The position numbers and the translations under genes are program-made. This document shows, one piece after another, positions 8,863 through 26,905 of a DNA stretch of 64,000 nt. Source of the stretch: Methylobacillus sp. (GTDB taxonomy: Bacteria > Pseudomonadota > Gammaproteobacteria > Burkholderiales > Methylophilaceae); the NCBI GenBank assembly GCA_031285185.1, contig JAITWS010000053.1:26519-90518 (forward strand), read 5' to 3'. Under the pieces are notes generated by a model that was not told where the DNA came from, did not search any database, and was given only the letters and a program-made list of their open reading frames with translations. Every line of letters starts with the position of its first letter. The first letter of the stretch is position 1.

Positions 8863-9812
8863 CGCATGCGCGCATCGCCGGAACCGGCAGTTATCTGCCC
8901 GCCAAAGTGCTCACCAACGCCGATCTCGCGCGCATGGTGGAAACTTCCGACGAATGGATCGTCGCGCGCACGGGCATACGCGAACGGCATATCGCGGCGG
9001 AAGGCGAATTTACCAGCGATCTCGCCGAGAAAGCCGCGCGCGCGGCGATGCAAGCGGCCAATGTCGCCGCGCAGGAAATTGATCTCATCATTGTCGCCAC
9101 CACCACGCCCGACCGCATTTTTCCGAGCGTCGCCTGTTTGCTGCAAGCCCGGCTGGGCATTTCCGGTCCGCCCGCGTTTGACGTGCAGGCGGTGTGCAGC
9201 GGCTTTATCTACGCGCTCGCCACGGCGGATCAGTTCATCAAAAACGGCGCGGCCAAATGCGCGCTGGTCGTGGGCGCGGAAACCATTTCGCGCATCACCG
9301 ACTGGACGGATCGCAGCAACTGCATACTTTGGGGCGATGGCGCGGGCGCGGTGATTCTCCGCGCGGACGACGCAGCGGGCATCATCTCCACGCATCTCCA
9401 CGCCGACGGCAGCCATGCGCGATTGTTGCAGGTCGCGGGCGGACCGATGCAGGATGGCAGCGATCCCGCGATCAAAATGGAAGGCAACGCCGTATTCAAA
9501 ATCGCCGTGAACACGCTGGACGCGATCGTGGACGAAACGCTCGCCGCCAACGGCATGAGCAAGAGCGACGTGGATTGGCTGGTTCCGCATCAGGCCAATA
9601 TCCGCATCATTTCCGCCACCGCGAAAAAACTCGGCATGGGCATGGAGCGCGTGGTCGTCACCGTGGGCGAACACGGCAATACCTCGGCGGCCTCGATCCC
9701 GCTCGCGCTGGATACTGCCGTGCGCGACGGACGCATCAAACGCGGCGAAATCCTGTTGATGGAAGCCTTCGGCGGCGGCTTCACCTGGGGTTCCGCCCTG
9801 ATTAAATACTAG
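8859..9812 (+). CDS. fabH: 3-oxoacyl-ACP synthase III
   Basis: [32 protein letters not shown]. Confidence 0.96.
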
Positions 9813-11608: not shown

Positions 11609-11845
11609 ATGTCTGATATTGAACAACGCGTCAAGAAAATCGTAGCCGAGCAACTGGGCGCCAACGAAGCCGATGTGAAAAACGCTTCTTCCTTCGTGGA
11701 CGATCTGGGTGCCGATTCGCTCGACACCGTAGAGCTGGTCATGGCGCTGGAAGAAGAGTTCGGCTGTGAAATTCCCGACGAAGACGCCGAGAAAATCACC
11801 ACCGTCCAGCAAGCGATTGATTACGTCACCGCCAACATCAAGTAA
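11609..11845 (+). CDS. acpP: Acyl carrier protein
   Basis: [17 protein letters not shown]...[20 protein letters not shown]. Confidence 0.98.
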
Positions 11846-13144: not shown

Positions 13145-13180
13145 AAAAAGCCGATTCGATGAATCGGCTTTTGTTTTTTC
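13145..13180 (+). terminator. Rho-independent terminator after fabF
   Basis: AAAAGCCGATTC-GAT-GAATCGGCTTTT followed by GTTTTTT. Confidence 0.85.
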
Positions 13181-13296
13181 ACTTTGCACCTTTCCTGTTA
13201 AAGGGTAAGGGGTTTATCCGGGAACAATTTTTCGCCTCCTGTAGAAGAAATAGCTATCGCAATAAAAATAACGTATTCATTATTTCGGGGGAGGGG

Positions 13297-13332
13297 TTGA
13301 CACAACAAAACGATATACTTAAGATTGTCGTT
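13297..13332 (+). promoter_or_regulatory. Leaderless sigma70 promoter with overlapping palindromic operator (copy A)
   Basis: TTGACA(13297)-17-TAAGAT(13320)-7-ATG(13333); imperfect palindrome AACGATATACTT|AAGATTGTCGTT at 13309-13332; no Shine-Dalgarno. Confidence 0.75.
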
Positions 13333-13353
13333 ATGAAAACAGATCACATCCGC
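13297..13353 (+). repeat. 57-bp imperfect direct repeat, copy A (copy B at 21464-21520)
   Basis: Ungapped manual alignment gives 44/57 identities, spanning the promoter and codons MKTDHIR vs MKSDYTR. Confidence 0.9.
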
Positions 13354-14472
13354 ATGAGTTTGCCGACGAAGGCGGTCGCCGCGCATCGCCGTCCGGTTTT
13401 TCGGCCATCGCAATCCGCATTTGCGGCGGAGTTGCGTGGGGCGGCGCGGGCTTGGCTGGATGCGCGGCATGACCATCAATACGCCAACGTGACGACCATG
13501 TTAAAAGTGGCGGCGATGGCGGGAGTTGCCGTTTTGTTTTATCTCGCTGCGCTGAGTGCGACGCGCGGTTATGCCTACATCGGCTTGTATGCCGGTTTTG
13601 CCGTCACGGCGGTGTTGCTGGCCGCGAACAGTTTGCACGATGCTTCGCATGGCGCGTTTTTTCGTTCGCGCGGTTTGAACGCCGCGATGATGCGCGTTAC
13701 CGCTGTTGCGCTGGGCATAGAGCCTGCGTATTGGCAGGTGCGGCATGTGCGTTATCACCACCCGAACGCGAATATCGAACACATTGATCTTGATACCGCC
13801 GCGAACCGCTTTTTGCGCCAGACACCGTTTCAGCCGTGGTTTCCCCAGTTTCGCTTTCAGCATCTTTACTGGCCGGTCATCGCCGGACTTTCCATGCCGT
13901 ATATCGGGCTGGTCTATGATTGGTCTGATCGCTTCGGCCTGACACCGCTCGCGCGGGATCGGGTGTTGCGCGGGTTTGGTGGCTGGCTGCGATTTATCGC
14001 CTCGAAACTGGCGCATTTTTTTCTGTGTTTGGCGCTCCCGCTTTGGCTTGTCGCGCCTTCCGTCGGTTATGGGGCGGTGATCGGCGGTTATGTGCTCGGG
14101 CAATTGTTGGCATCATGCTTGTTAGTCACGCTTATCCTCGGCACGCACTGGGCGGATACGCAGTTTTATGACATCAGCGACGGCGCGCCTTTGCCGCATA
14201 CGCGGGAAGAGCACGCCTTTCTGACGTGTTGCGACTGGGAGGCATCGCCCCGCATTATGGGCGGGCTGTTGGGCGGTCTGAATTTGCATCTCACGCATCA
14301 TCTGTTTCCGCATTTCCATCATCGTCACTATCCGGCGCTGGCGAAAATTGTCGGGCAAGTCGCCGCGCGTCACGGATTGCCATACCGCTGTTTGAGCTAC
14401 CGCGAACTCCTGCGCGCGCAACAGCATTTTCTTGAATCAATGGGGCAAAAGCCTGTGACTTCCCATGTGTGA
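13333..14472 (+). CDS. Membrane fatty acid (acyl-CoA/acyl-lipid) desaturase
   Basis: Three His boxes LHDASH, RHVRYHH, HLTHHLFP; hydrophobic segments. Start placed at 13333 (alternative 13354); the ORF-track start 13159 lies inside the fabF terminator. Confidence 0.88.
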   Translation: MKTDHIRMSLPTKAVAAHRRPVFRPSQSAFAAELRGAARAWLDARHDHQYANVTTMLKVAAMAGVAVLFYLAALSATRGYAYIGLYAGFAVTAVLLAANSLHDASHGAFFRSRGLNAAMMRVTAVALGIEPAYWQVRHVRYHHPNANIEHIDLDTAANRFLRQTPFQPWFPQFRFQHLYWPVIAGLSMPYIGLVYDWSDRFGLTPLARDRVLRGFGGWLRFIASKLAHFFLCLALPLWLVAPSVGYGAVIGGYVLGQLLASCLLVTLILGTHWADTQFYDISDGAPLPHTREEHAFLTCCDWEASPRIMGGLLGGLNLHLTHHLFPHFHHRHYPALAKIVGQVAARHGLPYRCLSYRELLRAQQHFLESMGQKPVTSHV

Positions 14473-15463
14473 TACGACCATTTCCCCGTTCCTGCCCATC
14501 GCCATCATCGCGACAGGCAAGGCGCTGCCTGCAATCAAACTCACCTCGACTGAACTCGACGCGCGATTTAAAAAGCCCGCAGGCTGGGCGCAAAAACATT
14601 CCGGCATCGAATATCGCCACCATGCGCGTGCCGATGAACGCCAATCCACGCTTGCGGCGCAAGCCTTGCGCGACGCGCTGGATCGCGGCAATGTCAATCC
14701 TGATTCCATTGATCTGCTGCTGTCGGCTTCGGGTGTGCAGGAACAGGCGTTGCCGTGCACCGCCGCGCTTGTGCTTGGCCAGGCCGGGCTGCGTCCCGGC
14801 ACGCCCGGGTTTGACATCAATGCGACCTGTCTGGGTTTTCTTGCCGCGCTGCGCGTTGCCGCGAGCCTGCTCAACACCTCGTCATACCGGCGCATTGCAA
14901 TCGTCGCGTCGGATCTCGCATCGCGCGGCATTGACTGGGACGATACGGAATCCTCGCTGATCTTTGGCGACGGCGCGGCGGCGGCGATCGTCGAGCGCGG
15001 GGACGGCGCGCGCGGTATCGAAGGTTATCGGCTCAACACATGGCCGGAGGGCGCGACATATTGCGAAATTCGCGCGGGCGGCACGCGCCGCACGCCACGC
15101 ACGGGCGCGGAGCCTTCCGATTTTCTGTTTCACATGGAAGGCAGACGGGTGCTCCGGCTGGGAACTGTCGCAACGGATGATCTGCTGGCCGGGTTGTTCA
15201 AGGAAACCGGCTTGTCGTTTAACGACATGGATGTGGTCGTGCCGCACCAGCCGAGTCCGCTCGGAATGCGTTATCTCGCCGAGCGCGTGCCGGATGATCG
15301 CATCGTCAACATTTATGCCACGCACGGCAATCAGGTCGCCGCTTCCATTCCCACCGCATTGCACGAGGCATTTGTAACGGGGCGCGCTCAGCCGGGTCGG
15401 CGGTTGATGCTGATCGGTACGGCGGGCGGCATTTCCGTGGGCGCGTTGATACTCAAATTATGA
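14465..15463 (+). CDS. FabH-like 3-oxoacyl-ACP synthase III / thiolase-fold condensing enzyme (accessory paralog)
   Basis: Cys-His-Asn triad: INATCLGF, VVPHQPS, HGNQVAASIP; FGDGAAA. Confidence 0.9.
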   Translation: MCDTTISPFLPIAIIATGKALPAIKLTSTELDARFKKPAGWAQKHSGIEYRHHARADERQSTLAAQALRDALDRGNVNPDSIDLLLSASGVQEQALPCTAALVLGQAGLRPGTPGFDINATCLGFLAALRVAASLLNTSSYRRIAIVASDLASRGIDWDDTESSLIFGDGAAAAIVERGDGARGIEGYRLNTWPEGATYCEIRAGGTRRTPRTGAEPSDFLFHMEGRRVLRLGTVATDDLLAGLFKETGLSFNDMDVVVPHQPSPLGMRYLAERVPDDRIVNIYATHGNQVAASIPTALHEAFVTGRAQPGRRLMLIGTAGGISVGALILKL

Positions 15464-16473
15464 CGACACTGGTTACCGGCGCCACCGGCGGCTTGGGAAG
15501 AAATGCCGTCGAATGGCTCGCCTCGCAACAACAAGCTGTGCGCGGCTCGGGACGCAACCTTGCCGCCGGAGCCGCGTTGCAGGCGCAGGGAATCGAGTTT
15601 GTCGCCGCCGATCTTGCAACGGCGCAGAGCGAAGAGATTGATCGTTTGCTTGATGGCGTGGAAACGGTCTGGCATTGCGCGGCCTTGTCGTCGCCGTGGG
15701 GGCGCTACGAAGATTTTTATGCCGCCAACGTCACCGCCACCACGCGGCTTGCAGGAATGGCGGCGATGCGCGGTGTGCGGCGTTTCATCCACATTTCAAC
15801 GCCGTCCATTTATTTCGATTACCGGCATCGCGCGAATATCCCGGAAACATTTCGCCCGGCGCGTTTCGTCAATCATTACGCGCACACCAAGGCGCTGGCC
15901 GAGGAGGGCATACGCGCGCTTGCCGCGCGTCATCCGCGGACAACATTTGTCATGCTTCGACCGCGCGGCATTTTCGGTCCGCATGATCGCGTGCTGTTGC
16001 CGCGCATTCTGCGTGTTTTGCACGAGCGCAACGGACGTTTGCCTTTGCCTCGCGGCGGCGCGGCACGGCTTGATCTTACTTATGCCGGCAATGTCGTTCA
16101 TGCGATGCAGCTCGCCACGACCCGCGCCGACATTGTGTCGGGGGAGGCGTTCAACATCACGAACGGGGAGCCGGTCATGTTGCGCGAAACGCTCGCAGCA
16201 TTGCTCGCGGCGCTTGGTGTGGATTGCCGTATTGTGGCTTTGCCCTATCCCGTTCTCAATTTCGTCGCGCGCGCGATGGAAGCCCGCGCGGCATTGACCG
16301 GCAAGGAACCGTCATTCACGCGCTACGGCATGGGCGCGTTGAATTACGACATGACGCTCGACATCGGCAAGGCATGGCGCGTGCTTGGTTACCGGCCTGT
16401 CGTGACGATGGACGAAGGCATCGCGGCAACAGCTCTGAGGATGCGGAAACATGGCGACGCTCACGGTTTTTGA
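15460..16473 (+). CDS. Extended SDR, NAD-dependent epimerase/dehydratase (3-beta-HSD / OleD-like)
   Basis: VTGATGGLG, WHCAA, HISTPSIY, YAHTK (YxxxK), RPRGIFGPHD. Confidence 0.9.
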   Translation: MTTLVTGATGGLGRNAVEWLASQQQAVRGSGRNLAAGAALQAQGIEFVAADLATAQSEEIDRLLDGVETVWHCAALSSPWGRYEDFYAANVTATTRLAGMAAMRGVRRFIHISTPSIYFDYRHRANIPETFRPARFVNHYAHTKALAEEGIRALAARHPRTTFVMLRPRGIFGPHDRVLLPRILRVLHERNGRLPLPRGGAARLDLTYAGNVVHAMQLATTRADIVSGEAFNITNGEPVMLRETLAALLAALGVDCRIVALPYPVLNFVARAMEARAALTGKEPSFTRYGMGALNYDMTLDIGKAWRVLGYRPVVTMDEGIAATALRMRKHGDAHGF

Positions 16474-17257
16474 AGCGGGTTATTGCACGCACATTGCCTG
16501 CATGGCGTTGCGCGGCGCGGGTTTTTCCGTGTGCCGTTTCCCCGCGCGCGCCTGGCTGATCGAAACCGCGCGAGGCCGCTGGCTGTGGGATACGGGCTAT
16601 GCCTCGCATTTTCTCGATCACACGCGGCACGGTGTTTTTGCCTGGTATCGGCGCGTCACGCCCGTGCATTTCAATGCCGGTGACGCGCTGGCATGGCAAC
16701 TGCGCGAACGCGGTTTGTCCGCGAACGATCTCACCGCTGTGATTCTTTCGCATTTTCACGGCGACCATATTGCCGGTTTGCGCGATTTGCAAGGCGCGCC
16801 GACCTGTCTCAGCGGCGCGGGATGGAACGCCACGCGTTCGTTGCGCGGCATTCGCGCATTACGCAAAGGTTTCGTGCCGGGTCTGATCCCGCCGGATTTT
16901 GAAACATCCATGACCGCCGTCGAGACGTTTGATCGCGTCGCGCTGCCTGCCGAACTTGCGCCGTTCACGCACGCCTACGCTGTGCCGGGCAGCGACGGCG
17001 AATTGCTGATCGTCGAGTTGCCCGGCCATGCGGCCGGACATCTCGGCGCGTTTGTCGCCACGGCGCAAGGCTGGGTCATGCTGGCATCGGATGCCGCATG
17101 GTCGCCCGCCGCTTACCGAAATCTCGTCGGCCCGTCGCGCCTGACCCACGCCATCATGGACGATGCGACGCAGTATTACGACACGCTGCATAAACTGAAT
17201 CAGCTTGACCGGCAGAAGAACGTGAAAATTCTCCTCACCCATGAAGGCGCTTTGTGA
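16451..17257 (+). CDS. Metallo-beta-lactamase-fold hydrolase
   Basis: LWDTGY, SHFHGDHIAG (HxHxDH), LPGHAAGH, ASDAAW, terminal THE. Confidence 0.9.
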   Translation: MATLTVFEAGYCTHIACMALRGAGFSVCRFPARAWLIETARGRWLWDTGYASHFLDHTRHGVFAWYRRVTPVHFNAGDALAWQLRERGLSANDLTAVILSHFHGDHIAGLRDLQGAPTCLSGAGWNATRSLRGIRALRKGFVPGLIPPDFETSMTAVETFDRVALPAELAPFTHAYAVPGSDGELLIVELPGHAAGHLGAFVATAQGWVMLASDAAWSPAAYRNLVGPSRLTHAIMDDATQYYDTLHKLNQLDRQKNVKILLTHEGAL

Positions 17258-18543
17258 TGCGGCTTGCGAACGTGCTCCGGTTTTACTGGAAAACGAAACA
17301 TCTGCGCTTTGGCAGCCGCGCGGCGCTCGAACATCACCAGCAGCGACAGCTTCAACGCTTCATGTCGAAGCATCTTGCGCGCAGCCAGTATTTCGCCCCT
17401 TTCGCCGGATATCCGCTTGATGCCTGGCCGATCATGACGAAAGTGACGATGATGGAACAATTTGACCGTCTCAACACGGCCAAACTCAAGCTCGCGGATG
17501 TGCTGGCGTGCGCGCTTGAAGCCGAGCGCACGCGCGACTTCACGAAAACGGTCGACGGTTACAGCGTGGGGCTTTCGTCGGGCACTTCGGGATCGCGCGG
17601 CGTGTTCGTGGTCAGCCCGGCGGAGCAGGCGCGTTGGGCGGGCGTGATGCTTGCCCGACTGCTGCCGCGCGGTTTGTTTTCCGGCGAGCGCGTCGCGCTG
17701 TTTTTGCGGGCGAACAACAATCTGTATTCCGCCATTCGCAGCCCGTGGCTATCGTTTGAATTTTTTGATCTCATGGAACCGCTTGCAAGTCAGTTCACGC
17801 GGCTGAGCCGCTACGCGCCAACGATCATCGTTGCTCCCGCGCAAGTCTTGCGCGCGCTGGCCGAGGCAAAGTCGCGCGGTCAGGCGGATATTCATCCGCG
17901 TCGCGTCATTTCAGGCGCGGAAGTGCTGGAGCCGTTTGACCGCGATTTTCTCGCGCGCGCATTCGGCGCGGTGGGCGAGGTTTATCAGGCAACCGAAGGG
18001 TTTCTTGGTTCGACTTGCCCGCACGGCACGCTGCACCTGAACGAAAGCCATGTTTATTTTGAACCGCAATGGCTGGATGAACAGCGTTTTGTTCCCGTCA
18101 TCACCGACTTCACGCGCGTGACGCAGCCCATCGTGCGTTACCGGCTGGACGATATTCTGGTGAAACGCGACGCGCCTTGTCCTTGCGGCAGTCACGAAAT
18201 GGCGATAGCGCGCATTGAAGGCCGATGCGACGACCTTTTGCGTTTTCCGGGGCGTGACGGCATGGTGGAGGTATATGCCGATGCGATCTCGCGCGCGCTC
18301 GCACAAATTTTGCCGATCACGGCGGATTACCGCCTCATGCAAACCGGCAAAACGCGGCTTGCGCTCCATGTCGAAGGCGTGGGTGATGAGGCGCTGGCGA
18401 ATTGCCGCGCGCATCTGGAACGTTTTTTGATGCGACAGGGCGTGCAAACAGAACGTTTGATCTGGTCTTTGGACATGCGCTTGCCCGCCGCCGATTTCAG
18501 CATGAAACGTCGGCGCATCATGCGCGCCGGAGACGCGCGATGA
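17254..18543 (+). CDS. Adenylate-forming enzyme, F390 synthetase / PaaK-related
   Basis: P-loop GLSSGTSGSRG, YQATEGFLG, RYRLDDIL, IEGRCDD. Confidence 0.88.
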   Translation: MMRLANVLRFYWKTKHLRFGSRAALEHHQQRQLQRFMSKHLARSQYFAPFAGYPLDAWPIMTKVTMMEQFDRLNTAKLKLADVLACALEAERTRDFTKTVDGYSVGLSSGTSGSRGVFVVSPAEQARWAGVMLARLLPRGLFSGERVALFLRANNNLYSAIRSPWLSFEFFDLMEPLASQFTRLSRYAPTIIVAPAQVLRALAEAKSRGQADIHPRRVISGAEVLEPFDRDFLARAFGAVGEVYQATEGFLGSTCPHGTLHLNESHVYFEPQWLDEQRFVPVITDFTRVTQPIVRYRLDDILVKRDAPCPCGSHEMAIARIEGRCDDLLRFPGRDGMVEVYADAISRALAQILPITADYRLMQTGKTRLALHVEGVGDEALANCRAHLERFLMRQGVQTERLIWSLDMRLPAADFSMKRRRIMRAGDAR

Positions 18544-19175
18544 GATCCGCGTCATTCCGAATACGCATCGCCATGATGTGCGTCGGCTGGGGAACGGTGG
18601 GGCTATGCTACGCAATCGGGAGCCTCACGCCGCGCGCTGTTCATGTTTTGCAAGAAACCGCGCTGGATCGTCTCATCCCGTTCAATGTGTCCGCGATAGG
18701 ACTTTATCTGTCTTTTTTCCTGCTGGTTCCGGTTGCCTATCTTTTTGCCGCTCCCGCGCGGCTCAAGTCCTTGATGTTTGCCATGCAACTCTCTGCCGTG
18801 CTGGCGGCCATCGTGTTCGTGCTCTATCCGACCACGCTGATTTATCCCGTTGCTTCGTCGTCCACGCCTGGCGGCGCAGTGCTGAACATGCTCGCCGGAT
18901 TTGATTCGTCCAATAATTGTCTGCCTTCGCTGCACGGCGCGTTGACGCTGCTTTGCGTTGTCGCGCTGTGGCAGCGGGAAAAAATGTGGCGCAATATTTT
19001 CATGCTGCTGTGGGCGCTGGGCATCGCATGGGCTGTCGTGCAGACGCGGCGGCATCTCGTCCTCGACCTCGGCGCGGGATTGCTGCTCGGCGCCGGTTGC
19101 GCGTGGCTGGCGGCGCGCGTGTCCAAACCGGAGAACATCATGACATTTTTCCGAAAGTTGAAATGCACGTCCTGA
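18540..19175 (+). CDS. PAP2-superfamily membrane phosphatase/phosphotransferase (AUR1/IPC synthase-like subgroup)
   Basis: About six hydrophobic helices; NNCLPSLHGA and TRRHLVLD catalytic-type motifs; ATG overlaps the upstream stop (ATGA). Confidence 0.8.
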   Translation: MRSASFRIRIAMMCVGWGTVGLCYAIGSLTPRAVHVLQETALDRLIPFNVSAIGLYLSFFLLVPVAYLFAAPARLKSLMFAMQLSAVLAAIVFVLYPTTLIYPVASSSTPGGAVLNMLAGFDSSNNCLPSLHGALTLLCVVALWQREKMWRNIFMLLWALGIAWAVVQTRRHLVLDLGAGLLLGAGCAWLAARVSKPENIMTFFRKLKCTS

Positions 19176-20311
19176 TTTTGGGCGCGCGCGCTCCGGCATG
19201 TCTGGAATGGTCGCGCTGTTTTCACGCGGTCGGATGGCGGGTCAGCGTCGGAGATTCGCTGCGCTGGCCGCTTGTGCGATTTTCCGCTGCGGCGCATGAA
19301 TTTATCCGTCTGCCCGAACCGCGCCGTTCTCCGGCGGACTGGATAGATGCGCTGGCAAAAGAAGTTGTGGCGCGTGACATTAATCTCGTGTTGCCGACAT
19401 GCGAGGAAGCGTTTTATCTCGCGCATGGCCGCGACCATATTCCCGCCCGCATCATGGTGCCGCCTTTTGCGCTGATGCATGAATTGCATCACAAAGGTCG
19501 TTTCGCGGAAAAGGTCAAGGGCTGGGAGATTGAAGCGCCGGAAACTCACCTTCTCGAAAAAGCCGGGGATGTCGAGGCATTCGCGGCAACGCATGATACG
19601 CGCGACTGGGTATTCAAACCGGCTTACTCGCGCTTCGCGCACCGCGCATTGCTGCGTCCCGATCCGGCACGGGTGATGCGATTGCATCCGACTTCGGCAC
19701 AACCGTGGATTGCCCAGCGCCACATCGCGGGGCGTGAGCATTGCAGCTACAGTTTGTTGCTTGACGGCAGGCTTACCGCGCACACTTGTTATCATCCCCG
19801 CTACCGGGTTGGGGGCGGTTCCGGCATCTGGTTTGAGCCGACCAACCCGCCGTTGATCCGGGCGTTCGTCGAGCAATTCGGCAGGGCAACCGGCTATACC
19901 GGACAAGTGGCTTTTGATTTCATCGAGCAGGCCGATGGTTCGTGTCATGTGCTGGAATGCAACCCCCGCGCGACCAGCGGCATCCATCTGTTCGCCGATC
20001 AACCGGAAGCGGTGGTGGCTGCGTTGCTGGGCGAGCGGGGCGTGCTGATACCACATTCCGCGCCGCGCCAGGTTGCCTCCGCCATGCTTTTGTTTGCCGG
20101 TTGCAAACATCGGTTCAATGCAAAATTCCGGCGCGATTTCCGCGCCGCAAGCGATGTGATTGCGCGGGCAAATGATTTCAAGCCGCTTCCGGCGCAACTT
20201 CTCGGCCTTATGGAAATTTCCGTCCGGGCACTGCGTCGGCGATGCGGTCTTTTGGCGGCTGCAACCGCGGATATCGAGTGGAATGGTCAGTCGCTGGAGA
20301 AGCGATTGTGA
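19163..20311 (+). CDS. ATP-grasp domain protein
   Basis: LPTCEEAFY, LHHKGRF, VFKPAYSRFA, WIAQRHIAGREH, GQVAFDFIE, LECNPRATSG. Confidence 0.85.
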   Translation: MHVLILGARAPACLEWSRCFHAVGWRVSVGDSLRWPLVRFSAAAHEFIRLPEPRRSPADWIDALAKEVVARDINLVLPTCEEAFYLAHGRDHIPARIMVPPFALMHELHHKGRFAEKVKGWEIEAPETHLLEKAGDVEAFAATHDTRDWVFKPAYSRFAHRALLRPDPARVMRLHPTSAQPWIAQRHIAGREHCSYSLLLDGRLTAHTCYHPRYRVGGGSGIWFEPTNPPLIRAFVEQFGRATGYTGQVAFDFIEQADGSCHVLECNPRATSGIHLFADQPEAVVAALLGERGVLIPHSAPRQVASAMLLFAGCKHRFNAKFRRDFRAASDVIARANDFKPLPAQLLGLMEISVRALRRRCGLLAAATADIEWNGQSLEKRL

Positions 20312-21441
20312 AATTGCTGACCGTCGAGGAATTTGCCGCAGGCGAGGGCGGAAAATGCCAACCGCTTTTAGCCGCGTTCGCGCGCCATGCGCCCGGCGCA
20401 ATCCGCAATGTCTCCACGCGCATGAGCATTCTCGCGACCGGCACGCATTTTTTTCCGGTGAGCATCAACACTGGCGATGAGCGCATCGGCAACAGTTATG
20501 TGGTATCTCCATACACGACTTATACCGGCTACGCGCAATATGAAATCGCCCAGCTTGGTGCGGCGTGTCTGACCTGGCCTTTGCGTATGCTGGTAAAAGC
20601 CGTGGGGCTTGGGCTGACGGCGGCACGTGTTGACCAGTTGGTGCAGGTGAATAATTGGCTGCTCTCCACCAATCTGTATCCGGCCAATTGGGAAGGCGCG
20701 GATTTGCCCGAGATGACGGATTTGTTGACACGGGAATTCCCGGAACATGCCATCAGTTTCCGCTCGCTCAATCAATTCAGCAATGCGAAGCTGATCGGGC
20801 GTTTGGAAAATCTGGGTTATCTCGCGCTTCCCAGTCGGCAGGTTTATCTGTTCGATGCGCGCAAGGGCGAACAGTCGGAGTTTTGGCATTGCCGCGATAA
20901 CCATAATGATGCCCGTTTGTCGCGCAACACGTCCTATGAGATTGTGCCGGGGAACGCGCTTGCGGATACGGATTACGCGCGTCTGGAACATCTCTACAAC
21001 CTTCTTTATCTGGAAAAATATTCGCCATTAAATCCGCAGTTCAGCGCCGACTGGCTGCGCGCCGGTCAGCGTGACGGCTGGCTGGAACTGCGCGCGCTAC
21101 GCAGCGAAGAAGGCCGCATGGACGGCGTTGCGGGCTGGTTCGGCAATTCGCATATTTTTACGACGCCCATCGTCGGTTACGATACCGCGCTGCCGCAAAA
21201 GTTGGGCTTGTATCGCCTGATTACCCACCTGAGTCTGCAAGAAGCCGCGCAACGACGCTGCCTGTTCAACGGCAGCGCCGGAGCCGCCCGCTTCAAACGC
21301 TTGCGCGGCGGCGTACCTGCAATCGAATATAGTCTGGTCTTTGTTCGCCACTTGCCCGTGGCGCGACAACAGGCTTGGCGTTCGCTCGTGCGTTTGCTGC
21401 GCGGCATAGGCGTGCCGCTCATGCAAAAGTTCAGGCTGTGA
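20308..21441 (+). CDS. Probable GNAT/FemAB-fold acyl- or aminoacyl-transferase
   Basis: C-terminal TPIVGYD...LGLYRL...GSAGAARFKRLRGG pattern resembles GNAT/Fem folds; GTG overlaps the upstream stop. Confidence 0.6.
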   Translation: MKLLTVEEFAAGEGGKCQPLLAAFARHAPGAIRNVSTRMSILATGTHFFPVSINTGDERIGNSYVVSPYTTYTGYAQYEIAQLGAACLTWPLRMLVKAVGLGLTAARVDQLVQVNNWLLSTNLYPANWEGADLPEMTDLLTREFPEHAISFRSLNQFSNAKLIGRLENLGYLALPSRQVYLFDARKGEQSEFWHCRDNHNDARLSRNTSYEIVPGNALADTDYARLEHLYNLLYLEKYSPLNPQFSADWLRAGQRDGWLELRALRSEEGRMDGVAGWFGNSHIFTTPIVGYDTALPQKLGLYRLITHLSLQEAAQRRCLFNGSAGAARFKRLRGGVPAIEYSLVFVRHLPVARQQAWRSLVRLLRGIGVPLMQKFRL

Positions 21442-21463
21442 TAAATTTCGGCACGAAAAACAC

Positions 21464-21499
21464 TTGACACCACGAAACGACATAACTAAGATCGTCGTC
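21464..21499 (+). promoter_or_regulatory. Leaderless sigma70 promoter with palindromic operator (copy B), probable ArsR autoregulatory site
   Basis: TTGACA(21464)-17-TAAGAT(21487)-7-ATG(21500); ACGAC-N12-GTCGT overlapping the -10 element. Confidence 0.75.
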
Positions 21500-21520
21500 A
21501 TGAAATCCGACTACACCCGT
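21464..21520 (+). repeat. 57-bp imperfect direct repeat, copy B (copy A at 13297-13353)
   Basis: 44/57 identities with copy A, no gaps. Confidence 0.9.
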
Positions 21521-21811
21521 ACCATCCCTCCCGAGTGGCAGCCCATGGCGCGCGTTTTTACCGCATTGGGCGATCAGCACAGGCAACGCATTTTGATGTT
21601 GTTCGACAAGGGCGAACGTTTGAATGTGGGGCAGATCGCGTCTGTTTCGACGTTGACGCGTTCGACGGTTTCGCATCATTTGAAAATTTTGCACGAGGCG
21701 GGCGTGCTGGGTTCGGAGAAGATCGGCAAGGAAGTCTGGTTCTGGATTAATCGCGCCTGGCTGGAAGAATCGCTGGGAAGAGTGCTGCATTACGTGCACG
21801 CGGAATGCTGA
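21500..21811 (+). CDS. ArsR/SmtB-family transcriptional regulator
   Basis: VFTALGDQHRQRIL...LNVGQIA...STVSHHLKILHEAGVL...GKEVWF; 103 aa. Confidence 0.92.
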   Translation: MKSDYTRTIPPEWQPMARVFTALGDQHRQRILMLFDKGERLNVGQIASVSTLTRSTVSHHLKILHEAGVLGSEKIGKEVWFWINRAWLEESLGRVLHYVHAEC

Positions 21812-21844
21812 TTTTTTTAACTAAACGTAACGAAATTTTTGATT

Positions 21845-24061
21845 ATGTCCAATATCGCACATGCAAAAGCGCAAACCTCGGCATGGTGGCGCACTCTGAT
21901 TCTTTGGGCGTTGCGCGGCCTCGCGCGGGTGGTGTTCCGCGTGCGGGTGCGCGGTGTGGAACATGCGCTGGCGGGCGCTCGGGAGGCGGGGGATCGCTTG
22001 CTCATCATCGCCAATCACGAATCGTTTTTGGATGGAACCTTGCTCGGTCTTTTTCTGCCGCTGCCCAAGGAGCCGGTATTCGTGGTGCATACGGAGGCCG
22101 TCAAACACAGGTTCCGGCGCTGGAGTCTGGATATATTGTGCGATTACCTTACGGTTGATCCGAATAATCCGATGGCGATCAAGCAGGTGATTCAACTGGT
22201 CGAATCGGGTCGTCCGGTGGTGATTTTCCCGGAAGGGCGCATCACCACGACCGGCAGTTTGATGAAAGTGTATGACGGCCCGGCGTTCATCGCGGCCAAG
22301 ACCGGCGCGACGCTGTTGCCGGTGCGCGTGGACGGCGCGATGCACAGTTATTTTTCGCGCATGAACAAAGGGAAAGAACCGCGCAAACTGTTTCCGCGCA
22401 TCACGCTCACGTTGTCACCGCCCACGAAACTCTCCATGCCGGAAGCGGAAAGTTCGCAGGAGCGCCGCCACAAGGCGGGCGATGCGATGCGTCGTTTGAT
22501 GCTGGAAATGGCGATGACGCGACCGGCTTCCGACACTTTGTACGGCGCACTGTGCGACACGATGGATCACTACGGACGCGACCGTCGCGTGCTCGAAGAC
22601 GTGAAGGAAATCGAATACAGCTATCAGGATGTGCTCAAGATGGCGCTCGCGCTCGGGCGCGTGGTCGGGCGCATGAGTCGCCGCGACGAGCGCGTGGGTG
22701 TGTTGCTGCCGAATCTCGCGGCGACCGTCGGGCTGTTTTTTGGATTGAGCGCGTTGCGTCGCGTGCCCGCGATGCTCAATTACACGGCGGGCACGGATGG
22801 AATGCAGGCCGCGTGTTCCGCCGCCGAAATCAAATTGCTCGTGACTTCGCGCGCCTTTGTCGAGCAAGCCAACATCGCCGACAAAATCGCCGCGCTGCAA
22901 GGCGTGGAGCGCATCGTTTATCTGGAAGATTTGCGCGAGCAACTCACGCTGTTCGATAAAATCTGGCTGGTGTGCTGGGGTTTGCGTTTTCCGCGTTGCG
23001 CGCAAATCAAAACCTCGACCGAAGATGCCGCCGTGGTGCTGTTCACTTCCGGCTCCGAAGGCAAGCCCAAGGGCGTGGTGTTGTCGCACCGCGCGATTCT
23101 CGCCAATGTCGCGCAAATCCGCGCCATCATTGATATTTCCGCCGACGACAAAATGCTCAACGCGCTGCCGATTTTTCATTCCTTCGGCCTCACCGGCGGC
23201 ACATTGTGGCCGTTGTTTTCGGGCATGAATCTGTTTCTCTATCCCACGCCGCTGCATTACCGCGTGATTCCCGAACTCGCTTATGACCGCAACTGCACGC
23301 TGCTGCTCGGAACCGGAACCTTTCTCGGCCACTACGCGAACAACGCGAATCCGTATGATTTTTACAAGATGCGCTACGTCATCGCAGGCGCGGAAAAACT
23401 CGCACCCGCCGTGCGCGATCTGTGGTTTGAAAAATTCGGCATCCGCATTTACGAAGGCTACGGCGCGACCGAAACCGCGCCGGTGATCGCGGTCAACACG
23501 CCCATGGGTTATTGCAGCGGCACGGTGGGACAATTTTTGCCGGGCATCGAATACCGCTTGCAAGCCGTGCCGGGCATAGACCACGGCGGTCGTCTGCATG
23601 TGCGCGGCCCCAATGTGATGAGCGGCTATCTCAAGGCCGACCAGCCCGGCGTGCTGCAACCGCCGGTGGCCGACGAACTCGGCGCGGGCTGGTACGATAC
23701 CGGCGACATCGTGGATGTGGACGAAGACGGTTTTGTGCGTATTCTTGGCCGCGTCAAACGCTTCGCCAAAATCGCCGGTGAAATGGTGAGTCTGGAATCC
23801 GTGGAAAAAATCGCGCAAAAAGCCGCGCCCGACGCGCAACATGCCGCGAGCAGCCAGCCCGACGAAAGCAAGGGCGAGGCGCTGGTGTTGTTCACAACGG
23901 ATGCCAATCTCGACCGCGCGGCGTTGCAGGAAGCCGCGCGCAGCTTGGGCATTCCCGAATTGGCCGTGCCGCGCAAAATCGCGCGCGTGGAAGAGTTGCC
24001 GCTGCTCGGCACGGGAAAAATTGATTACGTCACGCTGAAACGCATGGCGGAAACGGTTTGA
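21845..24061 (+). CDS. aas: Bifunctional 2-acyl-GPE acyltransferase / acyl-ACP synthetase
   Basis: N-terminal PlsC-type domain (IANHESFLDG, FPEGRIT); C-terminal AMP-binding domain (LFTSGSEGKPKGV, YEGYGATE, YDTGD, GRVKRFAKIAGEMVSL). Confidence 0.92.
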   Translation: MSNIAHAKAQTSAWWRTLILWALRGLARVVFRVRVRGVEHALAGAREAGDRLLIIANHESFLDGTLLGLFLPLPKEPVFVVHTEAVKHRFRRWSLDILCDYLTVDPNNPMAIKQVIQLVESGRPVVIFPEGRITTTGSLMKVYDGPAFIAAKTGATLLPVRVDGAMHSYFSRMNKGKEPRKLFPRITLTLSPPTKLSMPEAESSQERRHKAGDAMRRLMLEMAMTRPASDTLYGALCDTMDHYGRDRRVLEDVKEIEYSYQDVLKMALALGRVVGRMSRRDERVGVLLPNLAATVGLFFGLSALRRVPAMLNYTAGTDGMQAACSAAEIKLLVTSRAFVEQANIADKIAALQGVERIVYLEDLREQLTLFDKIWLVCWGLRFPRCAQIKTSTEDAAVVLFTSGSEGKPKGVVLSHRAILANVAQIRAIIDISADDKMLNALPIFHSFGLTGGTLWPLFSGMNLFLYPTPLHYRVIPELAYDRNCTLLLGTGTFLGHYANNANPYDFYKMRYVIAGAEKLAPAVRDLWFEKFGIRIYEGYGATETAPVIAVNTPMGYCSGTVGQFLPGIEYRLQAVPGIDHGGRLHVRGPNVMSGYLKADQPGVLQPPVADELGAGWYDTGDIVDVDEDGFVRILGRVKRFAKIAGEMVSLESVEKIAQKAAPDAQHAASSQPDESKGEALVLFTTDANLDRAALQEAARSLGIPELAVPRKIARVEELPLLGTGKIDYVTLKRMAETV

Positions 24062-24136
24062 GTTTTAAAAAAACCGTCGCATGAAAAATGCGGCGGATTC
24101 GACATCAACGAAGCAAACACAAAGGAGTAGGGAATC

Positions 24137-24760
24137 ATGAAATCGCTATTTTTCGCCGTTGTTTTGATGGTCGCCGGGATGTCGTCGGCATGGGCATTGC
24201 ATCCGTGCAATGGCACGCCGGGGGAACATGTCGTGGGAGCAACTGCCGACGACAATAGCGCTGTGGCGTTCTGCGAGGCACCGTTGGGGCCTCCCCCAAC
24301 TTTGGAGGAGCTGCAAGCGATGCGTGCAGTTCAGCAGAGAGAGGATGCTATCAAGGCGCTGGCAACCACCGGGGACGGCAAGTGGACGCACTACGATAAT
24401 TTTTGCGCGACATCGTATGTCAGCAGGGACGGCATGATTACGCTGGGCGTGTTCAAGGGCAAGCCCTATGTGTTTTTCGCCGGTGTTGATATTCCTGTTC
24501 CGTCCGGGGTGAAAACGGTTCCGGTCAAGATCGAGCAACCCGGTCAGAAAACGATCATGACCGAAGCCTTGTGGGGCGCCGGACAATTGACCGGACTTGG
24601 CGGGCTGCAAGTTTTTTACGGCAAAAACTTTTTCCCGGACATTCTCGACAAGGGCGATTTCAAAGTCAGCATCGGCGACACGCTTGTTTTCAAAGGCGGC
24701 TGGCGCAACGCAGGCGAGGCGCGCGAAAAATTGAAATGCGCCGTGAAAGAAATCAAATGA
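24137..24760 (+). CDS. Secreted hypothetical protein
   Basis: RBS GGAG; signal peptide MKSLFFAVVLMVAGMSSAWA; four Cys; no family recognised. Confidence 0.7.
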   Translation: MKSLFFAVVLMVAGMSSAWALHPCNGTPGEHVVGATADDNSAVAFCEAPLGPPPTLEELQAMRAVQQREDAIKALATTGDGKWTHYDNFCATSYVSRDGMITLGVFKGKPYVFFAGVDIPVPSGVKTVPVKIEQPGQKTIMTEALWGAGQLTGLGGLQVFYGKNFFPDILDKGDFKVSIGDTLVFKGGWRNAGEAREKLKCAVKEIK

Positions 24761-24807
24761 TTCCGCGCGTTTCGCAAGCCGATTTTCACAGCATTGAAAC
24801 TTGAAAC

Positions 24808-25398
24808 ATGAGACCACAAGATTATTTCGTCAACATCATACTCAGCGGCGTTTTGATCGTCGGCGCGTACCAGTTTTATTTTTTCACGCAGCGTCATCCG
24901 CTCAGAAAAGCACGCGCGTTCGCGTCGGCGCTGGATGAGCGGATTCCGTTCTGGCCGGTGTGGGGCTGGGTTTACAGCTTTTTGTATTACCCCGCGATTT
25001 TGTATCTGAACTGGATCGTCGGCGACGCGCATCAATTCACGATGATGGCGTTCAGTTTCATTGTGCTGCTGTTCATGCAGATGGCGTGTTTTTATATTTA
25101 CCCGGTCGAAACACCCGCGCATTGGCGCGCGATCAACACAGGCCGCAACGCTTCGGAAAGGTTTCTGCGGTTCGTGCAAAAAATTGACGCGCCGAGCAAT
25201 TGCTTTCCGAGTATGCACGTTTCCGTCGCCATGTTGACCGCCTTGCACGCGCAGCCCGTGATGGGGGCGTGGGTGTTTGTTTTTCCGGCGCTCATCGCGG
25301 TTTCGTGCGTATTCACCAAACAACATTACCTCATGGATCTGCCTTCCGGCGCCTTGCTCGGCGTGGCGGGCTATGAGATTTACCGCGTGCTTTTATGA
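24808..25398 (+). CDS. PAP2-superfamily membrane phosphatase/phosphotransferase (second paralog)
   Basis: SNCFPSMHVS, KQHYLMD; hydrophobic; overlaps the downstream MFS gene by 4 bp. Confidence 0.8.
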   Translation: MRPQDYFVNIILSGVLIVGAYQFYFFTQRHPLRKARAFASALDERIPFWPVWGWVYSFLYYPAILYLNWIVGDAHQFTMMAFSFIVLLFMQMACFYIYPVETPAHWRAINTGRNASERFLRFVQKIDAPSNCFPSMHVSVAMLTALHAQPVMGAWVFVFPALIAVSCVFTKQHYLMDLPSGALLGVAGYEIYRVLL

Positions 25399-26747
25399 GC
25401 CAGACGACACAAACCGCGCAGAAAGAACACTCCCAATTCCGGCTGTTGCGGAAGCGGCGTTTTCTGCCGCTTTTCATCACGCAATTTCTCGGCGCGTTCA
25501 ACGACAACGCCTACAAAACTTCGCTGGTCATGCTGATTACCTTCGGCGCTTCGTGGTCGGCGATGAAGCCGGAAGTGCTGACCAATCTCGCGGGCGGGAT
25601 TTTCATGGTTCCCGCGTTTTTGTTTTCGGCCACCGCCGGGCAACTGGCCGACAAATTCGACAAGGCGCGGCTGGCGCGCTGGGTCAAGGCGCTGGAGATA
25701 TTGATTATTCTGATTGTGGCGCTGGGTTTCTGGCTGCACAGTTTGACGTGGTTGTTGTCGGCGCTGTTTTTGCTCGGCACGCACGCCTCGTTTTTCGGCC
25801 CCATCAAATACGCGATTTTGCCGCAGCATTTGCGCCCGCAGGAACTGGTCGGCGGCAACGCGCTTGTGGATGCGGGAACCTTCATCGCCATTTTGCTCGG
25901 CACGATCAGCGGCGGCTTGCTCGCGCGTATGCCGGACGGCGAAGCGTGGATCGTCGGCATTTGTCTCACCGTCGCGCTCGCCGGTTTTGCCGCAAGCTGG
26001 AAAATTCCCGCCGCGCCCGCGCCCATGCCGGAACTCAAAATCTCCCTCAACCCGCTGGTCGAAGCCTGGCGCTGCATCGGGTTCGCGCGGCGCGAACGCA
26101 GCGTGTTGCTCTCCATCCTCGCGATTTCATGGTTCTGGTTTTACGGCGCGACGCTGCTCGCGCAATTTCCGCTCTTCGCCAAAAATGTGCTGGGCGGCGA
26201 CGAGGACGCATTCACGCTGCTGCTCACCGTGTTGTGCGTGGGCATCAGCGTGGGTTCGTTGCTGTGCGAAAAACTCACGCGCCGCCGCGGCAAAACCGTG
26301 GAGCCGGGGCTGGTTCCCATGGGCGCATTGGGCATGTTGATTTTCGGCATTGATCTGGCTTTCGCCGCGCCCGCGCATCCCGCCGCCATGGGAATGACCA
26401 TCACCACGCTGCTGCAACAAGACGGGGTGTGGCGCGTGCTGCTCGACCTGATGATGATAGGCGGCTTCGGCGGCGTTTATTGCGTGCCGCTTTACGCGCT
26501 GGTTCAGCAACGCAGCGACGAATCCTGCCGCGCGCGCGTGATCGCCGCCAACAACATTCTCAACGCGCTCTTCATGGTCGCGGGCGCGCTGGCCGCCATC
26601 GCCATCCTGAGCTGGGGACACCGCACCATCCCCGCGCTTTTCCTGCTGATCGCCGTGCTGCACGCCGGAGTCACCCTCTACATCTTCAGCGTGGTTCCCG
26701 AATTTTTAATTCGCGCGTTGGTGTGGTTGGGATTGAGAAGGGAATAG
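25395..26747 (+). CDS. lplT: MFS transporter, LplT-like lysophospholipid flippase
   Basis: FLPLFITQFLGAFNDNAYK, GQLADKFDK, FFGPIKYAILPQ, RVIAANNILNA; clustered with aas. Confidence 0.8.
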   Translation: MSQTTQTAQKEHSQFRLLRKRRFLPLFITQFLGAFNDNAYKTSLVMLITFGASWSAMKPEVLTNLAGGIFMVPAFLFSATAGQLADKFDKARLARWVKALEILIILIVALGFWLHSLTWLLSALFLLGTHASFFGPIKYAILPQHLRPQELVGGNALVDAGTFIAILLGTISGGLLARMPDGEAWIVGICLTVALAGFAASWKIPAAPAPMPELKISLNPLVEAWRCIGFARRERSVLLSILAISWFWFYGATLLAQFPLFAKNVLGGDEDAFTLLLTVLCVGISVGSLLCEKLTRRRGKTVEPGLVPMGALGMLIFGIDLAFAAPAHPAAMGMTITTLLQQDGVWRVLLDLMMIGGFGGVYCVPLYALVQQRSDESCRARVIAANNILNALFMVAGALAAIAILSWGHRTIPALFLLIAVLHAGVTLYIFSVVPEFLIRALVWLGLRRE

Positions 26748-26815
26748 TCATCCCTGTGCTAGAATGACGCCGCTTTTCCGCTGCTTGTTTTTGGAGCGCG
26801 GAAAAATTCCCAACC

Positions 26816-26905
26816 GGAAGCGTGGCCGAGTGGTTTAAGGCAGCGGTCTTGAAAACCGCCGAGGGTTTACGCCCTCCGTGAGTTCGAATCTCACCGCTTC
26901 CGCCA
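26816..26905 (+). tRNA. tRNA-Ser (anticodon TGA)
   Basis: GGAAGCG acceptor stem, anticodon arm GCGGT-CTTGAAA-ACCGC, long variable arm, GTTCGAATC, encoded CCA end. Confidence 0.97.

Follow-up and report, generated by a model that had tools for sequence, protein, structure and literature searches.

We analysed a stretch of 64,000 nucleotides from Methylobacillus sp. (contig JAITWS010000053.1, positions 26,519 to 90,518 of the forward strand; hereafter the window), which contains an operon of eight genes at 13333-21441 (Table 1). The results suggest that this operon belongs to a widespread, uncharacterised biosynthetic family that makes a long-chain, lipid-like product, a conclusion to which we give about an even chance. 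Sequence comparison further indicates that the operon is a hybrid, i.e. a six-gene conserved module of one variant of this family (the membrane type) together with a recently inserted two-gene cassette from another (the soluble type). A previous interpretation made from the letters alone (the sequence-only reading) had described a single eight-gene operon; eight coupled open reading frames (ORFs) are indeed present, but as one unit they resolve into module and cassette. The biosynthetic, lipid-directed look that it gave to the operon is supported, and its statement that the gene set has no assigned product agrees with the literature searched, in which the set matches no characterised pathway and in which searches on the gene set, on the families TIGR02304 and PRK06849, on F390 synthetase and on the contexts in E. 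coli, Pectobacterium and Xenorhabdus found no description of the cluster.

The ORFs and their junctions were recomputed. Eight intact plus-strand ORFs tile the operon without gaps, with neighbouring genes overlapping by 8, 4, 23, 4, 4, 13 and 4 bp in order, so that the eight overlapping genes (4-23 bp) with intact catalytic motifs that had been reported from the letters alone were recovered in full. A terminator scan found no strong internal terminator within the operon, and from this and the overlaps we infer that the eight genes are co-transcribed. Families were assigned by scoring Pfam and NCBIfam profiles against curated cut-offs; the matches agree with the earlier calls of a desaturase, a ketoacyl synthase (KAS), a short-chain dehydrogenase/reductase (SDR), a metallo-beta-lactamase (MBL)-fold hydrolase, an F390/PaaK-like enzyme and a PAP2 protein.

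The evidence for a wider family comes from gene neighbourhoods. Four genes form a conserved core, namely those for the KAS III-fold ketosynthase, the SDR, the MBL and the F390-related ligase (TIGR02304). The F390-related gene sits with KAS III, SDR and MBL genes at every locus examined, the SDR gene of Micropruina lying about 2 kb away on the opposite strand, and the core spans Pseudomonadota, Bacillota, Bacteroidota, Actinomycetota and a cyanobacterial sister group. Core loci were found in E. coli, Pectobacterium, Xenorhabdus, Ralstonia, Burkholderiaceae, Neisseria sicca, Pseudomonas and Thiothrix, and also in Bacillus mycoides, Chitinophagaceae, Micropruina and Sericytochromatia. The synteny of the core across several phyla is far beyond chance. 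On this comparison the cluster is not confined to the window genome and is a member of a widespread family.

The genes that accompany the core define variants. In the membrane type, the core is joined by a PAP2_3 gene with a desaturase and/or FA_hydroxylase ('sterol desaturase') gene; its hosts are Burkholderiaceae, Azoarcus, Ralstonia, Pectobacterium, Xenorhabdus and E. coli, with FA_hydroxylase present in the Burkholderiaceae and E. coli clusters. In E. coli it forms a seven-gene island, which is flanked by narI and tRNA-Tyr and carried by 673 of the 5426 complete genomes (12%). Carriers of this island (L051/L053) include ABU 83972, NRG 857C and uropathogenic strains, where it is annotated just generically. 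In the soluble type, found in Pseudomonas (including P. syringae), Thiothrix and others, the core is joined by an ATP-grasp gene, a tandem GNAT gene and usually a Rieske oxygenase gene, the last of which is absent from the window operon. A Bacillus/Sericytochromatia type has the ATP-grasp gene between the KAS III and SDR genes. The B. mycoides cluster holds both the ATP-grasp gene and, as its last gene, a tandem GNAT gene whose product is 34% identical to that of the window, which suggests that both are old partners of the core. Neisseria sicca has only the bare core. Sericytochromatia have a fatty-acyl-AMP-ligase-like gene upstream, and the Chitinophagaceae locus a PP-binding protein and a desaturase. 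The accessory genes seen elsewhere suggest that the substrates are long-chain acyl groups and that the product is associated with the membrane. Two further candidates were rejected, as the 223-aa product of an upstream gene in Pseudomonas is not a PAP2 protein and an opposite-strand GNAT gene in Sericytochromatia is not an orthologue of the tandem GNAT gene. At one soluble-type locus of Pseudomonas syringae (L033 5302-6807) the KAS III gene was not called and tblastn covered residues 83-331 only; this copy may be truncated or a pseudogene. The soluble-type Rieske protein (L014 11119-12126) has as its best NCBIfam match the bacterial sterol C4-methyl oxidase SdmA (68 bits), and the weak matches to SdmA (Rieske) and its partner SdmB (SDR) form a faint parallel to oxidative demethylation chemistry. 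To our knowledge the cluster hosts make no sterols.

Within this family the window operon appears to be an intact, horizontally acquired, accessory unit, because TIGR02304 is rare in relatives (above cut-off in 2 of 61, and in 8 of 401 genomes of the phylum) and the GC content at third codon positions (GC3) of the cluster genes, at 0.64-0.71, is below the 0.75-0.80 of the neighbouring housekeeping genes (0.75-0.78 for the fab genes). The lowest values in the operon are those of the ATP-grasp/GNAT cassette. The host genome is 2.1 Mb in size.

The hybrid structure was seen when the window was aligned by blastn with its closest relative (G004). The two are colinear over 13288-19118 (at 78% identity), 21443-24056 (85%) and 24808-26905 (83%), and the intervening segments, 19119-21442 with the ATP-grasp and GNAT genes and 24057-24807 with a hypothetical gene, are missing in G004. 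The last ~19 codons of the PAP2 gene differ from those of G004 as a result of the insertion. The window core proteins are closest to those of membrane-type clusters (51-82% identity) and the ATP-grasp and GNAT proteins to those encoded within soluble-type clusters (70-76% at the amino acid level). The 3' end of the cassette is exactly the GNAT stop codon, where soluble-type clusters go on with the Rieske gene. At the 5' end, the 13-bp overlap lies within the first ATP-grasp codons. Of five soluble-type clusters that were compared, three have an upstream F390-related gene that also ends in ATGCACGT.CTGA, and the remaining two have near-variants with the same overlap.

These findings raise the alternative that the eight genes are not one pathway, i.e. 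that the cassette is a recent passenger, inserted between the PAP2 gene and the promoter of arsR, and plays no part in modifying what the six-gene module makes. Although the cassette is missing from G004 despite the same flanks, the ATP-grasp and tandem GNAT genes accompany the same core from Bacillus to Pseudomonas and should therefore accept a core-derived product. Its low GC3, its excision from a soluble-type cluster without the Rieske gene of that cluster and the fact that an ATP-grasp homologue can occur alone (in Chromobacterium) would also suit a passenger, but both cassette ORFs are intact and translationally coupled to the PAP2 gene and to each other, and the genome contains no second core cluster for the cassette to serve. 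We consider this alternative distinctly doubtful.

The ketosynthase has the KAS III catalytic triad (Cys122, His261 and Asn289) and an HQP motif (PHQPS), and its closest solved relatives are MxnB and CorB, which it matches end to end with 195 bits compared with ~145 for FabH. In a maximum-likelihood tree MxnB and CorB nest inside the radiation of cluster ketosynthases and FabH lies on a separate long branch with 100/100 support; the tree includes just two FabH sequences and none of OleA, PpyS or NocG, and its deep forks are weak. The 14 NCBIfam matches of the protein (FabH-type, HMG-CoA synthase and StlD/DarB models) do not include the OleA model. In CorB, P266, two residues past the catalytic His, has been linked to non-decarboxylative chemistry (PMC5506619). 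CorB-type HQP was rejected as a signature of the family, since among 24 orthologues checked the motif is limited to the window genus. The decarboxylating FabH carries Ala at this motif position. Because the Pro is Ala in the other family members checked, we gave it little weight.

The SDR (motifs GATGGLG and YAHTK) has OleD (NF042422) as its best NCBIfam match, with 165.6 bits against a cut-off of 580, i.e. it is related to that family and not a member of it; its best PDB match is NSDHL, and it also matches SdmB weakly (80 bits). OleD and NSDHL/SdmB act on beta-keto or beta-hydroxy acids. Head-to-head condensation is plausible, and the relatives of the ketosynthase and the SDR lend it support. 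The MBL (motif HFHGDH) has the lactonases AiiB, AiiA and 4-pyridoxolactonase as its best matches; MBL-fold thioesterases are also well known. The ligase (motif SSGTSG) is a member of TIGR02304, with 507.1 bits against a cut-off of 251.9 over positions 5-426 of 430, and is PaaK-like, PF00501 scoring just 18 bits, under its cut-off. The family scores thus agree with the earlier proposal that an MBL stands here in place of an alpha/beta hydrolase and a PaaK-like enzyme in place of OleC. The ligase family has ~500 representatives at 50% clustering (E<=1e-30). One fused MBL-F390 protein (P0352) has an MBL part orthologous to the cluster MBL (32% identity), and one fused PAP2_3-F390 protein (P0393) has a PAP2 part orthologous to the cluster PAP2 (39% identity); these fusions support functional coupling of the partners. 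The PAP2 domain of P0393 is N-terminal, the reverse of the window gene order.

The same enzymes allow a decarboxylative extension resembling the synthesis of the Pseudomonas quinolone signal (PQS), which we regard as unlikely although it is the main rival. In this scheme, the ligase makes the CoA or acyl carrier protein thioester of an unusual starter acid, which the KAS III lengthens decarboxylatively by one malonyl unit. After reduction of the 3-oxo group by the SDR, the MBL, working as a thioesterase of the PqsE type, frees a 3-hydroxy acid (or, if the reduction is skipped, a methyl ketone), and the tail enzymes decorate the product. The triad of ligase, KAS III and MBL-thioesterase matches the established logic of PqsA, PqsD and PqsE, but the window MBL matches lactonases and has no PqsE match. 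The Cys-His-Asn triad of the ketosynthase is complete and most family members have HQAS, as in decarboxylating FabH, whereas the ketosynthase groups with MxnB and CorB, apart from FabH, and the Pro of CorB is present in the window copy. The scheme needs a CoA ligase, which PaaK-like enzymes are; however, loading is already provided for at the Sericytochromatia locus by a distinct fatty-acyl-AMP ligase, and the closest SDR relatives act on alpha-substituted beta-keto acids.

A further alternative is a catabolic or detoxifying operon: the MBL would open an exogenous lactone, the PaaK-like ligase make the CoA ester, the SDR oxidise the 3-hydroxy group and the thiolase-fold enzyme cleave the chain, with oxygenases preparing the substrate. 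We consider this very improbable, as KAS III-fold enzymes condense and are not thiolytic, and the core has neither a transporter nor a regulator of the kind usual in catabolic operons as a conserved partner. The best MBL matches, quorum-quenching and pyridoxolactone lactonases, would fit degradation, of which PaaK-type ligases are typical, and the cluster is found in host-associated bacteria; association with a fatty-acyl-AMP ligase, a PP-binding protein, an ATP-grasp protein, a tandem GNAT protein and a PAP2 protein instead fits biosynthesis.

The remaining proteins of the operon would modify the product. The desaturase has the His boxes HDASH, HVRYHH and HLTHH and gave no match in a PDB sequence search, and its orthologues are found in membrane-type clusters of E. 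coli, Pectobacterium, Ralstonia and Burkholderiaceae. The PAP2 protein was examined for the three motifs of a PAP2 lipid phosphate phosphatase (C1 KxxxxxxRP, C2 PSGH and C3 SRxxxxxHxxxD); C2 (PSLH) and C3 (RRHLVLD) are present and C1 is absent, unlike in true phosphatases. The PAP2_3 branch includes transferases of the sphingomyelin/inositol phosphorylceramide-synthase type, and because the protein belongs to this family a role as a transferase is possible. For the ATP-grasp and GNAT proteins there was no Pfam match at threshold and no PDB sequence match, and the earlier calls of these two families hold at the level of fold, from AlphaFold (AF2) models built on 32-sequence alignments and compared by Foldseek. 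The ATP-grasp model (mean confidence score pLDDT 93.6) matched PurK, PylC and L-amino-acid ligases (E about 1e-14, TM-score ~0.6), which confirms a three-domain ATP-grasp fold for the modelled 382-aa protein. Its NCBIfam score is 372 bits, under the cut-off of 406 (PRK06849-like); its homologues match ATP-grasp_3, one homologue scored here being sub-threshold. The GNAT-like model (pLDDT 92.8) matched Sba18/Sbb17, the aminoacyl-phosphatidylglycerol (aa-PG) synthase domain of MprF and FemX (Foldseek probability 1.0, TM-score 0.45-0.6), and Pfam gave only a sub-threshold Acetyltransf_6 match. The modelled 377-aa protein is thus confirmed, at fold level, as a tandem GNAT with a fold closest to aminoacyl-tRNA-dependent transferases; tandem GNATs that use acetyl-CoA match it almost equally well, so the donor may be either aminoacyl-tRNA or acyl-CoA. 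On a Chromobacterium subtsugae-type contig (L032) a lone ATP-grasp homologue is surrounded by genes for signalling and phosphonates and has no core gene in its vicinity.

The observations concern the enzyme families and their linkage only, and each chemical step of the following pathway is inferred from them. The MxnB/CorB-like ketosynthase would join two fatty-acyl or beta-ketoacyl thioesters head to head, and the OleD/NSDHL-like SDR would reduce the 3-oxo group. The lactonase-like MBL might then release the acid from its thioester, or open a lactone. The F390-related enzyme would re-activate the product with ATP at the membrane, beside the PAP2_3 protein, which may add, exchange or remove a phospho head group, and the desaturase would modify the alkyl chain. 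In the window genome the ATP-grasp and tandem GNAT proteins would finally add an amine or aminoacyl decoration. An ArsR protein could couple expression of the operon to lysophospholipid recycling via aas and lplT. A more detailed version can be put together from the same parts: the core would make a branched, mycolate-like 2-alkyl-3-hydroxy (or pyrone-derived) acid, which would be nucleotidylated or adenylated at the membrane by the F390-type enzyme, given a phospho head group by the PAP2_3 protein as a C1-less transferase and, in the window genome, also amidated and aminoacylated (from aminoacyl-tRNA) by the cassette, all within a lipid-responsive ArsR regulon that includes lysophospholipid recycling. 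Such a lipid would belong to a so far unrecognised bacterial class. We think it improbable that this joint version is right in all its parts.

Several points weigh against the proposed biosynthetic pathway. The window KAS III is only 35% identical to MxnB (blastp), and HQP is found in the window and G004 only, with PHQAS in 22 of the 22 other cluster loci with a readable motif. MxnB and CorB take beta-ketoacyl chains bound to a polyketide synthase (PKS), and no PKS or PP-binding gene was found by Pfam in 13333-21441. True F390 synthetase adenylylates a hydroxyl group, so that the group activated by the window ligase is uncertain. Compared with the Ole system for olefins and beta-lactones, every window component comes from another family, and all Ole-family scores are far under their cut-offs. 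A 59% identical homologue of the ATP-grasp protein occurs alone in Chromobacterium. For the MBL, the F390-related enzyme, the PAP2 protein, the ATP-grasp protein and the GNAT, both the place in the pathway and the substrate are guesses.

We also examined the boundaries of the operon. Upstream lie plsX, fabH, fabD, fabG, acpP (11609-11845) and fabF, with plsX, fabH, fabD, fabG and fabF (5/5 scanned proteins) above their family cut-offs; only in the window genome does a fab-operon acpP lie upstream of the cluster. The sequence-only reading placed the operon directly after the fab cluster, which is correct for its position. A functional link was rejected, and the adjacency is accidental, because a strong terminator and a separate promoter intervene (Table 1) and the operon of G004 is not beside fabF and sits elsewhere. 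The -10 element of the operon promoter ends 7 nt before the desaturase ATG, and the operon mRNA is therefore probably leaderless. A ~22-bp palindrome (ACGATATACTTAAGATTGTCGT) covers this -10 element. Promoter, palindrome and first codons (MKTDH compared with MKSDY) recur at 21464-21515, before an arsR-family gene that leads aas, a hypothetical gene, a second PAP2_3 gene and an MFS (lplT-like) gene, and both of these cluster-linked promoter/operator copies are also kept in G004. The operon and the downstream arsR-aas-PAP2-lplT unit thus share one putative palindromic operator, and the cluster is probably regulated by the ArsR-family protein.

Outside the window, a third near-identical module of TTGACA, operator and ATG (AACGATATAACTAATCTTGTCGTT) was found on contig C37 at ~21690 on the minus strand. 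A terminator lies before it, and after it come a leaderless ORF of ~20 codons and five genes for signal-peptide proteins, which makes it a candidate for a third operon in the ArsR regulon. In same-genus genomes that lack the cluster (L031 at ~8900-9000, and L030), arsR-aas units carry a different palindrome (ATGACTAAT/ATTTAGTCAT), which likewise overlaps the -10 element and precedes a leaderless start; operator and regulator (54-56% identical) have therefore diverged together. The 207-aa ORF (24137-24760) between aas and the second PAP2_3 gene has no family match, and the segment that holds it is an insertion relative to G004.

Table 1. Positions in the window of the operon genes, the insertion and the flanking elements
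Feature	Position	Strand	Details
Desaturase (Des)	13333-14472	+	379 aa, three His boxes; PF00487 FA_desaturase 86.5 bits
KAS III-fold ketosynthase, MxnB/CorB-like clade	14465-15463	+	332 aa; ACP_syn_III N- and C-terminal domains
Extended SDR, 3-beta-HSD type	15460-16473	+	337 aa; Epimerase/3Beta_HSD
MBL-fold hydrolase	16451-17257	+	268 aa; Lactamase_B
F390-synthetase-related, PaaK-like adenylate-forming enzyme	17254-18543	+	429 aa, GTG start; TIGR02304
PAP2_3-family integral membrane protein	18540-19175	+	211 aa; PAP2_3 40 bits
ATP-grasp carboxylate-amine ligase-like protein, PRK06849-like	19163-20311	+	382 aa; AF2/Foldseek fold
Tandem (dupli-)GNAT protein	20308-21441	+	377 aa, GTG start; AF2/Foldseek fold
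Inserted 2.3 kb ATP-grasp/GNAT cassette	19119-21442	+	blastn colinearity breaks at 19118/21443 vs G004
Bidirectional intrinsic-terminator hairpin 3' of fabF	13146-13172		12-pair stem, T runs on both sides
Putative promoter and palindromic operator of operon	13297-13332	+	TTGACA-17-TAAGAT; near-copy at 21464-21499
Second putative promoter/operator copy, then leaderless arsR-family gene (21500-21811)	21464-21811	+	
aas, 207-aa hypothetical, second PAP2_3 gene, MFS (LplT-like) transporter	21845-26747	+	

The conserved pathway lies in many well-studied bacteria, i.e. in 12% of complete E. coli genomes and in Pectobacterium, Xenorhabdus, Ralstonia, Burkholderiaceae and Neisseria sicca, and is also carried by Pseudomonas syringae and by plasmids of the Bacillus cereus group. 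The identity of its product would give a new class of membrane lipid or signal, or a new route to branched or lactone lipids, and would also assign functions to TIGR02304, PRK06849 and the unnamed tandem-GNAT family. The window operon is useful in this respect as it naturally combines both tailoring sets on one core, and it offers a regulatory handle in the form of one predicted ArsR-type repressor with three near-identical putative operators.

Among known systems, the membrane-type islands of E. coli (the narI/tRNA-Tyr island, phylogroup-B2-type), Pectobacterium, Xenorhabdus szentirmaii, Ralstonia and Burkholderiaceae have the same core and membrane tail and proteins 40-82% identical to those of the window. 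They differ in having the 'sterol desaturase'/FA_hydroxylase gene, which is missing in the window operon, in lacking the ATP-grasp/GNAT pair and the ArsR operator, and in gene order, with the desaturase gene coming last in Enterobacterales. FemX, the aa-PG synthase domain of MprF and Sba18/Sbb17 have the two-GNAT fold in common with the 377-aa protein, with no relationship at the sequence level. PqsA, PqsD and PqsE form the same trio of acid-activating ligase, KAS III-fold enzyme and MBL-fold hydrolase, but the window operon has no anthranilate genes and instead has an SDR and lipid-tailoring enzymes, and no Pqs model was among the NCBIfam matches of its ketosynthase or MBL. MxnB and CorB (PDB 4v2p, 4yuc) are ketosynthases that stand alone and join two chains to form the alpha-pyrone of myxopyronin and corallopyronin. 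The window KAS III shares their Cys-His-Asn triad and HQPS motif, whereas their partners are carrier domains of type I PKSs, of which the window operon has none. We know of no pyrone product for the cluster.

The OleABCD and OleACD beta-lactone systems (lipstatin, nocardiolactone) have the same series of enzyme types, namely a thiolase-fold condensing enzyme, a 3-beta-HSD-type SDR, an adenylate-forming enzyme and a hydrolase. The Ole-like logic suggested earlier for the operon therefore stands as regards condensation, ketoreduction and carboxylate activation, with relatives of MxnB/CorB and OleD/NSDHL, but not as regards the families, as no Ole family member is present. The condensing enzyme is an MxnB/CorB-like KAS III rather than OleA, the ligase is TIGR02304/PaaK-like rather than the beta-lactone synthetase OleC (ANL, PF00501), and the sole hydrolase of the operon has an MBL fold, unlike the alpha/beta-hydrolase OleB, a beta-lactone decarboxylase. 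The gene order also differs, and nothing in the Ole systems corresponds to the PAP2, desaturase, ATP-grasp and GNAT tails.

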